This document shows, piece after piece, positions 1,872 through 12,850 of a DNA stretch of 20,000 nucleotides. The DNA is from an uncultured virus (IMG/VR IMGVR_UViG_3300010355_000481) (Duplodnaviria > Heunggongvirae > Uroviricota > Caudoviricetes > Crassvirales), in IMG/VR virus record IMGVR_UViG_3300010355_000481; one strand, written 5' to 3'. Under the pieces are notes generated by a model that was given only the letters and a program-made list of their open reading frames with translations, was not told the origin of the DNA and made no database searches. The position numbers and the translations under genes were made by a program. Position 1 is the stretch's first letter, and each line of letters starts with the position of its first letter.

Positions 1872-2026
1872 ACATTTCAAATATTCTTACTATTATCTTA
1901 TCGATAGTATTATTTAGCATAGCATGTCATTTGCTTAACCAACCATCAGATTGGGCTGCCGCATGCGGTATTCTGATAATTATTTCTTTAATTTATAAAC
2001 TTATAAAAACAATTCAAAAATTATGA
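1868..2026 (+). CDS. small two-TM membrane protein (52 aa) coupled to the SPFH gene
   Basis: Translated by hand: MNISNILTIILSIVLFSIACHLLNQPSDWAAACGILIIISLIYKLIKTIQKL; ATGA overlaps at both ends. Confidence 0.7.
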   Translation: MNISNILTIILSIVLFSIACHLLNQPSDWAAACGILIIISLIYKLIKTIQKL

Positions 2027-3057
2027 TTTCATTCGCATTAGCACTGATTATATCAGTAGTATTAGCAGCATCGTTAGGATTATTTAAATTTAAACGTTGG
2101 TCTATTTATCCCGAAAACGCTACCGTTACACAAGAGGAGTACGACAATAATCTACAATGGAAACGTGGTGGTTATGATGTCGGAGATCTTAAACCTAATA
2201 CATCTCTTAGATTTAATTATAGTCACTTATTTAAAGCTATAGGTGTATTATTTTTATTCTTATTCTTGTGGGCAGTATCACCATTAGGCTTTCAACGTAT
2301 CGATGCCCGTAATATTGGATTACAAATTAGTCGTACAGGTAATGATAAAGGTATACCTAGAGTAACTCCAGTTAAAGGATTAGTATTTTATAATGCTTGG
2401 AATAATGACGTAGAAGAAATATCTATAGGACAATTTCCCATTAAATACACTGAATTTGAAGTTCCAGCTTTAGGGGGAACACCTATACCTGTAGCTCCCG
2501 AAATGAATCTAAGCCTTAAACCGGAAACATATGCTCAATTATATGTACATGTATTAAAAGGAGGAGATTTAAGTTCATTAAAGGATAGTTGGATTAGAAC
2601 TAATGTAATTAATGCTATGGTATATGCTACTAATAAATTTACGCCCGATAGTATATTTAACTACGCAGAAACTTATCGCAATGAAGTGTATACTCAATTA
2701 TCTAAAACATTAGGATCATATTTTAACGTAGATCAAGTTAATGCAGGGCAACACCCTCCGAGAAGCATGAAAGAAGCATTACAAAAACAAGCAGATGCTG
2801 TATTAGCTACAAGACAAGCCCAATTAGATGAAACTCGTGAAATAGCTCAGAAAAATGCTAAAATAGCACAAGCACAAGGAGATTCAGCCAAAGTTGTAAT
2901 TGAAGCTTCCGCAGCTGCAGAAGCAATACGTCTAAAAACAAAAGAATTATCTAGAGAATACGTTGAATATACTAAATGGATAACAGCATCCCCTGATGTA
3001 CAGAGAGTATCTCAAACAGTATTAGGATCTGGAACGAATGTATTACTCAACAAGTAG
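2023..3057 (+). CDS. SPFH/band-7 (prohibitin-like) membrane protein
   Basis: TM helices, then RIDARNIGLQI...GLVFYNAW, and an Ala/Glu/Gln-rich coiled-coil tail (IAQAQGDSAKVVIEASAAAEAIRLK...EYVEY.KW). Confidence 0.85.
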   Translation: MISFALALIISVVLAASLGLFKFKRWSIYPENATVTQEEYDNNLQWKRGGYDVGDLKPNTSLRFNYSHLFKAIGVLFLFLFLWAVSPLGFQRIDARNIGLQISRTGNDKGIPRVTPVKGLVFYNAWNNDVEEISIGQFPIKYTEFEVPALGGTPIPVAPEMNLSLKPETYAQLYVHVLKGGDLSSLKDSWIRTNVINAMVYATNKFTPDSIFNYAETYRNEVYTQLSKTLGSYFNVDQVNAGQHPPRSMKEALQKQADAVLATRQAQLDETREIAQKNAKIAQAQGDSAKVVIEASAAAEAIRLKTKELSREYVEYTKWITASPDVQRVSQTVLGSGTNVLLNK

Positions 3058-3069
3058 TAACAATCTTGG

Positions 3070-3207
3070 TAGGTTATAGCTGAACTGGTTAGAGCATAGC
3101 TTCAAGTGAACGTTGACGATAGTGGTAAAAGACGACAATATCCTGTTCTGGTAGCTATCCAATCAGAAGTACAATGATTGGTGAGGGTTCGAATCCCTCT
3201 AACTTAA
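3070..3207 (+). tRNA. tRNA-like gene with a 51-nt anticodon loop (possible intron; possibly Leu-CAA) and a long variable arm
   Basis: Acceptor TAGGTTA/TAACTTA; D arm TAGCTGAACTGGTTAGAGC; anticodon stem TAGCT/AGCTA; variable stem CCAATCA/TGATTGG; T arm GAGGG-TTCGAAT-CCCTC. Confidence 0.75.
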
Positions 3208-3258
3208 CTATAACTCGGAGGCAATTGCTGATTGGTTATTTTTTCATCATGTTGGCTT

Positions 3259-3381
3259 TGGGCAGTGGCGAAATTGGTAAACGCACTGGTAAGTGAGTAA
3301 TAGAGTAAGCGTAAAATAGCACTGCTCCGCGCTGGAAGCGTCACGACCGGCATATTGGGGGTTCGAATCCCTCCTCCTGAA
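3259..3381 (+). tRNA. tRNA-like gene with a 55-nt structured anticodon loop; identity not assignable
   Basis: D arm TGGCGAAATTGGTAAACGC; anticodon stem CTGGT/ACCGG; T arm GGGGG-TTCGAAT-CCCTC; imperfect acceptor TGGGCAG/CTCCTGA. Confidence 0.7.
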
Positions 3382-3413
3382 CTAATAATTAATCATTAAA
3401 TAATAAAAAAACT

Positions 3414-3707
3414 ATGTATAGACCAAGTTATATCGAACCTGATAATATGAAATTATTAGGTTTTGACCTGTTAAAAGACAAAGATGGATATCTTAAATAC
3501 CAAAATGACGGTACCAAACATTATAATCCAGATTATAATTCAGAATATCCAGAACCAAAAGGTAAAGTTCTTATATATGTAAACACTACATACACTAAAA
3601 ATACATTTTATCTTAGTATACGTCAAGATGGCGATACCCGTAATTCTTACACTGGTATATGTCCGTCTGAAGAATTTTTTATCCAATTATTAAATAATAT
3701 AAGGTAA
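3414..3707 (+). CDS. hypothetical protein
   Basis: 97-aa ORF with A-rich leader. Confidence 0.75.
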   Translation: MYRPSYIEPDNMKLLGFDLLKDKDGYLKYQNDGTKHYNPDYNSEYPEPKGKVLIYVNTTYTKNTFYLSIRQDGDTRNSYTGICPSEEFFIQLLNNIR

Positions 3708-12285: not shown

Positions 12286-12387
12286 ATGACAGAAAAGATC
12301 CTTTTAATTGGGCAAGCGTTACCATATAATACGTATCTTTGTAAAAAAAGATCACATGGTATTATTAGAAGAATGGAAAGAAATTAA
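12286..12387 (+). pseudogene. truncated duplicate of the 5' end of the UDG-like gene
   Basis: MTEKILLIGQA versus MTEKILIIGQS at 12843; stops after 33 codons. Confidence 0.7.
12334..12341 (+). promoter_or_regulatory. Bacteroidota -7 promoter element for the HNH gene
   Basis: TATCTTTG 14 nt upstream of the ATG at 12356; no canonical -33 TTTG. Confidence 0.5.
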
Positions 12388-12850
12388 AAATTGTAATGGT
12401 AATTATTTAATTAGCAATTTTGGTAAGGTAAAATCAGTACGTAATAATTTAATTTTAAAAACAAGTCTAGATAAAGATGGATACAATAGATTAAGCTTAC
12501 GTAATAAAAATAAACCTATTTATTGTAGAATTAGTAAATTAGTTGCTACTTATTTTGTCCCTAACCCTGATAATTTGACTATAGTTAATCATATAGATAA
12601 TACAAGAAATAATGATATTTTTACTAATTTGGAATGGGTCTCTGTTAGAGAAAATACTTGTCACGGTATAAAATTAAATAAAAAATTACCAATAGGCGTA
12701 TCAAAAAGACCTAAACAAAATAAATATCGAGCAAGAATTGAAATTAATCGTAAATCAATTTCTTTAGGAGATTTTAATACTCCTGAAGAAGCATCTGAAG
12801 CTTATAAAAAAGCTTTACAAACCTATAAAATCAAAAACAAATATGACTGA
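12356..12850 (+). CDS. NUMOD4-HNH-AP2 homing endonuclease
   Basis: EEWKEIK...YLISNFGKVKS (NUMOD4); VNHIDNTRNNDIFTNLEWVSVREN (HNH); GVSKR...YRARI...LGDFNTPEEASEAY (AP2); ATG at 12356 preferred. Confidence 0.9.
   Translation: MVLLEEWKEIKNCNGNYLISNFGKVKSVRNNLILKTSLDKDGYNRLSLRNKNKPIYCRISKLVATYFVPNPDNLTIVNHIDNTRNNDIFTNLEWVSVRENTCHGIKLNKKLPIGVSKRPKQNKYRARIEINRKSISLGDFNTPEEASEAYKKALQTYKIKNKYD

Follow-up and report, generated by a model that had tools for sequence, protein, structure and literature searches.

The 20,000-nucleotide (nt) window analysed here, from the uncultured Crassvirales phage IMGVR_UViG_3300010355_000481 (IMG/VR), carries two tandem tRNA-shaped genes on the + strand, gene 1 (3070-3207) and gene 2 (3259-3381). 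As judged from sequence comparison, gene 2 belongs to an RNA family that is conserved among large phages and apparently undescribed, with nine further distinct relatives in large-phage contigs of 20-345 kb. Its anticodon loop is interrupted by a three-way junction, and sequence together with covariation shows that the first helix of this junction pairs with U33 and the anticodon, which is thereby masked. The working form of the RNA may be an unspliced, tRNA-scaffolded RNA centred on this module, to which we give a probability of about 0.45. A first-pass annotation, made from the letters alone, had placed two tRNA-like genes here with about 50 nt in place of the anticodon loop, and both were found at these positions: in the register of the Rfam tRNA model RF00005, 51 nt (gene 1) and 55-57 nt (gene 2) stand, as encoded, where a tRNA has seven loop bases, among them U33 and, at position 37, a purine. 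Both genes possess acceptor, D and T arms, and the G18G19 pair of bases and a TTCGA T-loop are found in them as well.

Gene 2 is a tRNA-Val(CAC)-like cloverleaf consisting of an acceptor stem (3259-3265/3374-3380, 5/7 paired), a D arm (3268-3284), an anticodon stem (3285-3289/3347-3351) and a T arm (3357-3373). Here 57 nt stand where RF00005 has 9 positions, and the score of 24.5 bits does not reach the gathering score (E 0.012 when 701 nt were searched). ARAGORN recognises gene 2 at a relaxed threshold only, reading a tRNA-Val(CAC) in which position 32 is followed by a 50-nt intron. Two of the seven acceptor pairs are mismatched, and A.C stands at 27:43. The insert of gene 2 (insert 2, 50 nt, 3291-3340), delimited by the covariance model R1 and by covariation, starts with AA (3291-3292) and continues with the 5' strand of helix P1, GUGA (3293-3296), a joiner GUAAUA (3297-3302), helix P2 (3303-3307/3323-3327) with its 15-nt loop (3308-3322) and the P3 hairpin (3328-3340). 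It is followed by UCACGA (3341-3346), i.e. the 3' strand of P1 (U33 and the anticodon CAC, 3341-3344), G37 and A38. With 3291-3340 removed, U3290 (position 32) and 3341-3346 would make a canonical 7-base anticodon loop. The first-pass annotation had seen no canonical U33 loop 5' of the insert; a canonical loop does exist, but its U33 lies 3' of the insert, and exact removal of the insert leaves Y32-U33-CAC-R37-A38 in 9/10 family members (32 being U or C and 37 being G or A).

The family was assembled by pattern scans of IMG/VR and metagenome contigs and has at least ten distinct members. Besides gene 2, these are L333 (the same place as L056) in the 202-kb genome G002, which has terminal repeats and whose copy recurs with identical sequence in G003; L513 in the 139-kb G009; L334, L335, L336 and L337 in G004, G005, the 208-kb G006 and G007, respectively; L338 in the 345-kb G008, also with terminal repeats; L339 in a 19.8-kb IMG/VR contig; and L226 in a 43.8-kb metagenome contig. 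All ten follow one parse, in which a 7-bp acceptor stem, a D arm, the anticodon stem and one base (position 32) precede the insert, so that a three-way junction of 48-55 nt is placed after nucleotide 32 in 10/10 members. The insert itself (10/10) reads R-A, P1 GUGA, the joiner GUAAUA, a 5-bp P2 and a P3 hairpin of variable sequence; 3' of it come UCAC (the 3' strand of P1), R, A, the 3' strand of the anticodon stem, the variable loop, the T arm and the 3' strand of the acceptor (10/10). The GUAAUA joiner is invariant, and the P2 loop is conserved as AGCGUA-(0-3 nt)-AAAU-NN-CAC (15-18 nt). In P1, GUGA pairs with U33 and the anticodon CAC, the pairing GUGA:UCAC being found in 9/10 members.

In the alignment of all ten sequences (A3), 94.1% of cells are paired and both-sided changes occur at 9/17 pairs; none of 500 shuffles reached any of the five measures used, and in slid controls the paired share fell to 28-49%. 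The helices P2 and P3 and the anticodon stem covary, P3 being disrupted in L336. The model R1, which describes the anticodon stem and the three-way-junction insert, was built from a 9-sequence alignment, on which a covariation test was also run. It scores gene 2, one of its own building sequences, at 81.3 bits (E 2.3e-21) and detects a single strong copy in each of the genomes G002, G006, G007 and G008 (79-89 bits), with no match in the phage fragment G001, in gene 1, in the tRNA-like locus L004 or in T4 rnaC/rnaD. RF00005 gives 30.7-32.8 bits at 4/8 of the relatives' loci and 18.8 bits for the copy in G002. A search with Rfam 15, including self-cleaving ribozymes and riboswitches, at E values up to 10 gave nothing except tRNA over the inserts of the window and of eight relatives. 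For gene 2, two outcomes that the first-pass annotation had named as fatal to its proposal, a merely decayed pseudo-tRNA and a known Rfam family, did not materialise: homologues with a conserved, covarying insert exist, and only tRNA models match.

The yield of the individual scans was uneven. One returned 13 loci, mostly chance matches, with a single one of interest (L004); another gave 67 loci with three notable ones (L056, L108 and L057, the last being L004 again); and another two loci, both previously known. The metagenome scan returned at least 119 loci, among them L216 (100% identical to the window), L167 (again L004) and L226. A further scan, also with at least 119 loci, consisted mostly of ordinary tRNAs with the motif in the D loop, L364 and L432 being notable. 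The scan of prokaryote genomes gave 95 loci, none of which was left after an acceptor/T-stem filter, the matches being tmRNA-like and due to chance only. In the scan that returned 14 loci, nine were true matches, all of them (9/9) within tRNA bodies, and the other five were chance; the module has been seen nowhere else. Two sequencing runs (X7 and X10) contain contigs from other organisms that match the insert of gene 2 only (window 3272-3331) and have different flanks; in one of these contigs ACG is added behind 3313, and its loose ends can be read as an anticodon stem CUCG/CGGG. Judged by these matches, wastewater holds more members of the family than the collections returned. A literature search brought up no description of the module, only the Lak megaphage papers.

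The distribution of conservation along the gene is one reason for regarding the module, and not the tRNA, as the functional part. Mean pairwise identity among the ten members is 88.6% in the insert core and 88.3% in the T loop, compared with 55.9% over all exon stems and 38.3% in the acceptor stem; because the insert core is so much better kept than the acceptor, the module is under stronger selection than the tRNA around it. The copy in the related phages G002 and G003 has lost the 5' half of its D arm and nevertheless retains a perfect module, together with 7/7 acceptor and 5/5 T-stem pairs, which argues for an unspliced RNA. In G009 (L513), a relative of these two phages, the flanks are the same, the D arm is full and the 31-nt module core is identical. 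The differences are a compensatory acceptor change, another P3 and alterations of both P1 and the anticodon: the anticodon region is UCUAAC, the 5' strand of P1 is AGAAGAA (AGA:UCU, three of the four P1 pairs with a one-base slip), and ARAGORN reads the anticodon as CUA. That the module core is kept while the anticodon region is changed also favours an unspliced form. Recoding of TAG was considered as the reason for this variant and was rejected, since reading TAG as sense in G009 raises the ORF (open reading frame) cover by only about 3% and joins no long ORF pieces; a need for suppression therefore does not account for the CUA.

The module of G006 and of G007 is carried by a tRNA body, AGTCAGGTGG...CCTGTCCTGACT, that is present 13 times in G006 (L477-L487; e.g. 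G006:C1:165459-175408). The anticodon and variable regions of these copies are very different and mostly non-decodable, one of them consisting of an 8-bp stem with a 47-nt insert, and G006 has in addition a full ordinary tRNA set with other acceptor stems. That the body of G006 and G007 is shared with so many copies whose anticodon domains are aberrant again speaks for an unspliced working form, as do the variable discriminator (A in 5/10 members, U in 5/10) and the presence of C34, an unusual base at this position in the ordinary tRNAs of that phage, G006. The confinement of the module to tRNA bodies and the lack of RtcB and EndA in the three genomes searched for them (3/3) are further arguments in the same direction. 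The same body, carrying yet another insert, was observed at L432 in another contig.

Genes 1 and 2 are probably transcribed as tRNA-shaped RNAs in a phage of a bacterium that probably does not use Shine-Dalgarno sites. If the RNA works unspliced, the intact acceptor, D and T arms would, by analogy with known tRNA scaffolds, supply RNase P/RNase Z end processing, CCA addition and stability. Within the module, those unpaired bases that are highly conserved, namely the joiner GUAAUA and the loop AGCGUA..AAAU..CAC, might then be the working part, which would bind some protein or RNA partner. The anticodon-loop bases retained next to the insert are also explained by their pairing in P1 and may in addition be explained by tandem purine pairs, R-A opposite R37-A38.

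The main alternative, to which we give a lower probability, is that the inserts are true introns of a new kind, exactly excised by a phage or host endonuclease and RNA ligase or by their own chemistry to give tRNA-Val(CAC) and tRNA-Leu(CAA), with the module masking the anticodon until then. Several of the observations in its favour weigh directly against an unspliced working form. The textbook loop left by exact removal (9/10 members, and likewise UUCAAGA in gene 1, whose predicted 5' cut lies behind the second base of a 3-nt bulge) is accompanied by mostly canonical 5-bp anticodon stems, which are clean in L336-L339; ARAGORN reads Val(CAC) with an intron at 7/8 family loci tried and, when relaxed, in gene 2 of the window; and pre-tRNAs typically have their intron paired with the anticodon. 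Nor is the gene redundant, as no second Val(CAC) was found in G002, G006, G007 or G008, and RNA ligases occur in G001 and G002. Moreover, the module has no known partner.

An intron would further agree with the pairing of P1 with U33-N36, whose 5' strand has changed together with the anticodon in L513, with the covariation of the cloverleaf arms, with the location of the gene inside a tRNA cluster in G007 and in the contig of L334, and with the relaxed resemblance of the gene 1 fold to a bulge-helix-bulge. The canonical loop is a weaker argument than it looks, because such loops are not rare after arbitrary cuts. Excision is also opposed by the conservation of the insert far above that of the exons, by the D-arm-deleted copy, by the body shared with 12 aberrant paralogues in G006, by the lack of any TAG recoding sign in the genome of the CUA variant (0 ORFs joined) and by the fact that both genes of the window can be read in this way only in a register lacking nucleotide 26. 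In addition, bacteria have no known mechanism that would splice a non-group-I tRNA intron of 50 nt. It seems rather unlikely that the three-way junction is a very small new type of tRNA intron that masks U33 and the anticodon, with the tRNA hidden from host anticodon nucleases until maturation. Phage tRNA genes are now viewed as weapons against host tRNA-cutting defences.

The enzymes of splicing give a divided picture. RtcB (PF01139) and EndA (PF01974) were searched for in G001-G003 and neither was found, which speaks against excision, while RNA ligase families were recognised with 69.2 and 49.4 bits in G001 and with 52.5 bits in G002, which speaks for it, as does the RtcB of the control genome Bacteroides thetaiotaomicron. 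In five further contigs a ligase family was missing or under the cut-off (5/5), the complete G008 reaching 21.3 bits. Of the search for RtcB, a ligase and an endoribonuclease that the first-pass annotation had proposed, only the ligase part gave matches, in the relatives G001 and G002. Contigs of four sequencing runs showed no spliced or insert-less joint among the matches listed; contigs cannot show absence, and this bears on neither reading. The two options of the first-pass annotation, a protein-spliced intron and a non-decoding tRNA mimic, are each supported in part.

Intron-like insertions in tRNA genes of huge phages, which the first-pass annotation had mentioned, have indeed been reported: the Lak megaphage report calls the tRNA introns 'enigmatic' (Devoto et al. 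2019; bioRxiv 10.1101/356790) and describes inserts of about 90 nt, predicted at 37/38, with a T-arm-like GGTTCGAATCC piece (bioRxiv 10.1101/356790; Table S6, PMC6784885). The Lak inserts resemble those of the window in being short, non-group-I insertions in the anticodon loops of large-phage tRNA genes, highly conserved between phages, without Rfam match and of a mechanism that is not known, and the Lak hosts are Bacteroidota, the type inferred for the host of the window; they are thus a precedent for unexplained tRNA inserts. They differ in that the window inserts are 46-55 nt long, have no T-arm-like piece and show no sequence likeness to them, insert 2 being placed at 32/33 and forming a three-way junction. 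A TTCGA-type hairpin was found in neither window insert. Short non-group-I inserts in phage tRNAs have been unexplained since the Lak report in 2019, and one such insert is now defined by a covariance model, ten members, exact boundaries and an anticodon-hiding helix, which makes it a testable object. If the insert is excised, it would represent a tRNA-splicing route not yet described in bacteria or their phages; if it is not, the tRNA fold would be a natural scaffold displaying a conserved RNA module in large phages. Either outcome would improve the annotation of phage tRNAs, as standard tools miss such genes: ARAGORN in its standard mode found no tRNA gene (0) in the window.

Archaeal and eukaryotic tRNA introns are processed by EndA/Sen and RtcB or Trl1 at a bulge-helix-bulge motif, in which two 3-nt bulges on opposite strands are separated by a 4-bp helix and the cuts fall inside the bulges. 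The inserts resemble them in size range, in their place in the anticodon loop and in pairing with the anticodon, and gene 1 also in having the canonical 37/38 position and a 3-nt bulge with the 5' cut. In contrast, the hosts here are bacteria, as follows from the lack of Shine-Dalgarno use and from a class-II tRNA-Tyr in a relative. Gene 2 does have a 4-bp helix, GUGA:UCAC, but it is flanked by a 3x2 internal loop on one side and by no bulge on the other, so that the bases left unpaired are on the wrong side of it. In gene 1 a 3-nt bulge, a 3-bp helix (pair probabilities about 0.3) and a 1-nt bulge amount to a relaxed likeness only.

Group I introns share with the inserts their occurrence in tRNA anticodon loops, in the same phages, and the pairing of an intron segment with exon bases. 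They differ in size (46-55 nt here against about 190 nt or more) and at the splice site: group I introns follow a U.G splice pair rule, whereas the base preceding the insert is C, not U, in 6/10 members. RF00028 found nothing in the window at its gathering score, nor at E values up to 10 in 2900-3600, while in a positive control it recognised the group I intron that splits a tRNA-Leu(UAA) gene of G006 (54.1 bits; G006:C1:151062-151345; L484 11062-11345). A descent of the gene 1 insert from such an intron was considered on account of a 10-mer, ATAGTGGTAA, shared with the 3' end of the G006 intron, and was set aside as insufficiently supported: 8/500 shuffles score as high, uncorrected for many comparisons.

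Gene 1 is a real tRNA-shaped gene of class II (long variable arm), whose insert is unrelated to that of gene 2 and which has no known relatives. RF00005, whose gathering score is 29, recognises it at 38.7 bits and over all of its 71 positions, with E 3.9e-05 for the complete 20-kb window; 51 nt (insert 1, 3102-3152) replace the 7-nt anticodon loop. Its parts are the acceptor (3070-3076/3200-3206), the D arm (3079-3095), the variable arm (3159-3181), the T arm (3183-3199) and the discriminator A3207. As the first-pass annotation had proposed, removal of 3107-3152 yields a Leu-CAA-like tRNA: when introns are allowed, ARAGORN reads the gene as tRNA-Leu(CAA) and places a 46-nt intron after G37 of the loop UUCAAG|A, i.e. 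at 37/38, and the resulting UUCAAGA loop suits the class-II body and A73. The intron search recommended there recovered gene 1 directly and gene 2 only at the relaxed threshold. Another reading of the gene 1 loop is UUCUGGU. In the minimum free energy fold, a helix 3108-3112/3144-3148 is followed by the 3-nt bulge (3105-3107) and a weak helix 3102-3104/3149-3151, which pairs U33-C34-A35 with the end of the insert, U3152 being bulged; the predicted 5' cut thus faces a helix of only 3 bp and an opposite bulge of 1 nt.

The pairings listed by the first-pass annotation (GAACG/TGTTC and TTGACG/CGACAA in insert 1; GTGA/TCAC, GAGTA/TGCTC and GCGCT/AGCGT in insert 2) are all present in the sequence. 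Its statement that both inserts fold is borne out for insert 2 by the covariation of ten sequences, but neither insert folds better than shuffles (z +1.18 for insert 1 and -0.08 for insert 2), and insert 1 is without covariation support because no homologue was found. A covariance model, as suggested there, was obtained for insert 2 and leaves gene 1 unmatched. AAGTGA and GTAAAA do occur in both inserts; their sharing is within chance, however, as 101/500 shuffles are as similar as the two inserts are, and this, with the failure of R1 to find gene 1, leaves the idea of a single module class unsupported. No relative of gene 1 was found among GenBank phages (blastn and megablast), by an exact 28-nt gene 1 pattern in IMG/VR, in the further pattern scans, in prokaryote genomes or among the metagenome matches listed.

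With gene 1 in particular in mind, the two genes may be asked to be neutral relics, tRNA genes disabled by insertion and now drifting. This is improbable and plausible mainly for gene 1, which has no relative and whose insert folds no better than shuffles; the two acceptor mismatches and the sub-threshold Rfam score of gene 2 point the same way. For gene 2, however, a relic is refuted by ten covarying members with a near-invariant core, and gene 1 keeps all four arms (38.7 bits). Contigs of a variant strain have 8-10 changes in 2985-3036 and none listed across 3070-3117 (X7) or 3070-3165 (X10), a weak sign against drift in this part of gene 1, as it comes from contigs only.

Both genes lie on the coding strand between the close-packed ORFs 2023-3057 and 3414-3707, and a scan between these ORFs for a promoter or terminator gave none that stood out. 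Such a setting would suit tRNA-like punctuation, in which the cloverleaves are only RNase P/Z signals cutting a polycistronic early transcript between the two ORFs. The acceptor and T arms are also the best-kept tRNA parts, and the G006 paralogues vary freely in the anticodon domain. We nevertheless consider it quite improbable, as neither the near-invariant 31-nt module core in unrelated phages nor its constant location in the anticodon loop would be explained.

A tRNA-like body with a long helical extension is reminiscent also of Y RNAs, in which a tRNA-like domain and a helix bind a Ro/Rsr protein. Bacterial YrlA RNAs (RF02553) are likewise non-decoding RNAs with a tRNA-like module and also occur in phages, and a TROVE protein in the control genome of B. 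thetaiotaomicron means that a host partner could exist. Such a role is highly improbable all the same: the Y_RNA and YrlA models remained unmatched at E values up to 10, none of the five phage records (0/5) has a TROVE gene, and the topology probably differs, the RNAs here ending in an acceptor stem. The species 1 and 2 stable RNAs of T4 (rnaC/rnaD), two small RNAs that measure 139 and 119 nt and lie in tandem in the tRNA region of this phage, have tRNA-like 3' parts (a weak tRNA-Sec match) but neither an R1 match nor a full cloverleaf with an anticodon-loop insert; to our knowledge, they have no assigned function.

The window has a G+C content of 30% and is densely filled with small + strand ORFs. 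A Shine-Dalgarno-like core is present upstream of 1/68 of these ORFs, compared with 7% of random positions, and the leaders are A-rich; because such cores are nearly missing and the leaders A-rich, the host is probably of Bacteroidota type, given what is known of Bacteroidota. Matches to PHROG and Pfam among the window proteins comprise an RNase H, a uracil-DNA glycosylase-like protein, a NUMOD4-HNH-AP2 homing endonuclease (12308-12850), a DUF3307 protein and a phrog_200 protein of 344 aa (ORF 2023-3057) just 5' of gene 1. The IMG/VR search found no relative of this 344-aa protein; a 28%-identical relative of it lies in G008, away from the tRNA-like genes of that phage. Neither blastn nor megablast against GenBank phages gave a match to the window. 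Near-identical DNA is present in sequencing runs labelled activated sludge or wastewater, and one run (X2) has four contigs at least 99% alike to the window. The window proteins have only three scattered matches in G002, G006 and G008, none being common to all three, and the 16 kb around the G002 module copy match no window protein. The module-bearing phages are thus, by sequence, otherwise unrelated in the parts compared.

Several other odd tRNA-like loci were observed. L004 in G001 is a 138-nt class-II tRNA-like gene with AAGUGA, a GGUAAAAG hairpin and a poor anticodon stem, and it is not matched by R1. G001 (L004, L014-L043; G001:C1:35494-54864) is a phage fragment of 94 kb that bears 31-33 tRNA genes, an amber-reading tRNA(CUA) among them. 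One of its two RNA ligase genes, at a distance of about 1.9 kb from the tRNA cluster, belongs to PF09414 (69 bits), the other to PF09511 (49 bits). The pair G3.U70, which we take to be the alanine identity mark of tRNA-Ala and tmRNA, is found in both window genes and in L004, and is absent from the other nine members of the module family. At G002:C1:151173-151293, a tRNA-Leu(UAA)-like gene has a 38-nt hairpin, far too short for a ribozyme, inserted between U34 and A35, with AAGUGA in its loop; this is presumably the classic group I site of tRNA-Leu(UAA). G008 has two such loci: a tRNA with the ochre-reading anticodon UUA and a 34-nt insert according to ARAGORN (G008:C1:48420-48542), and a class-II-like gene with a 60-nt structured region at the position of the variable arm and a CUA triplet in an oversized loop (G008:C1:99175-99304). 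L364 (104-215) is tRNA-Thr(UGU)-like, with a 36-nt insert directly behind the 5' strand of the anticodon stem; the last bases in the loop of its insert hairpin are GGUAAAA. Insert 1 and L004 show the same, a likeness that is circular, as the search pattern required the motif. Finally, three unrelated IMG/VR contigs (L003, L007 and L012) have the motif GAGGGAGCTACC(G/T)ATTGA(C/T)AAGTGACCGCACA(C/A)GCGGTAAAA about 45 nt 5' of a tRNA, and this motif may be a conserved RNA element.

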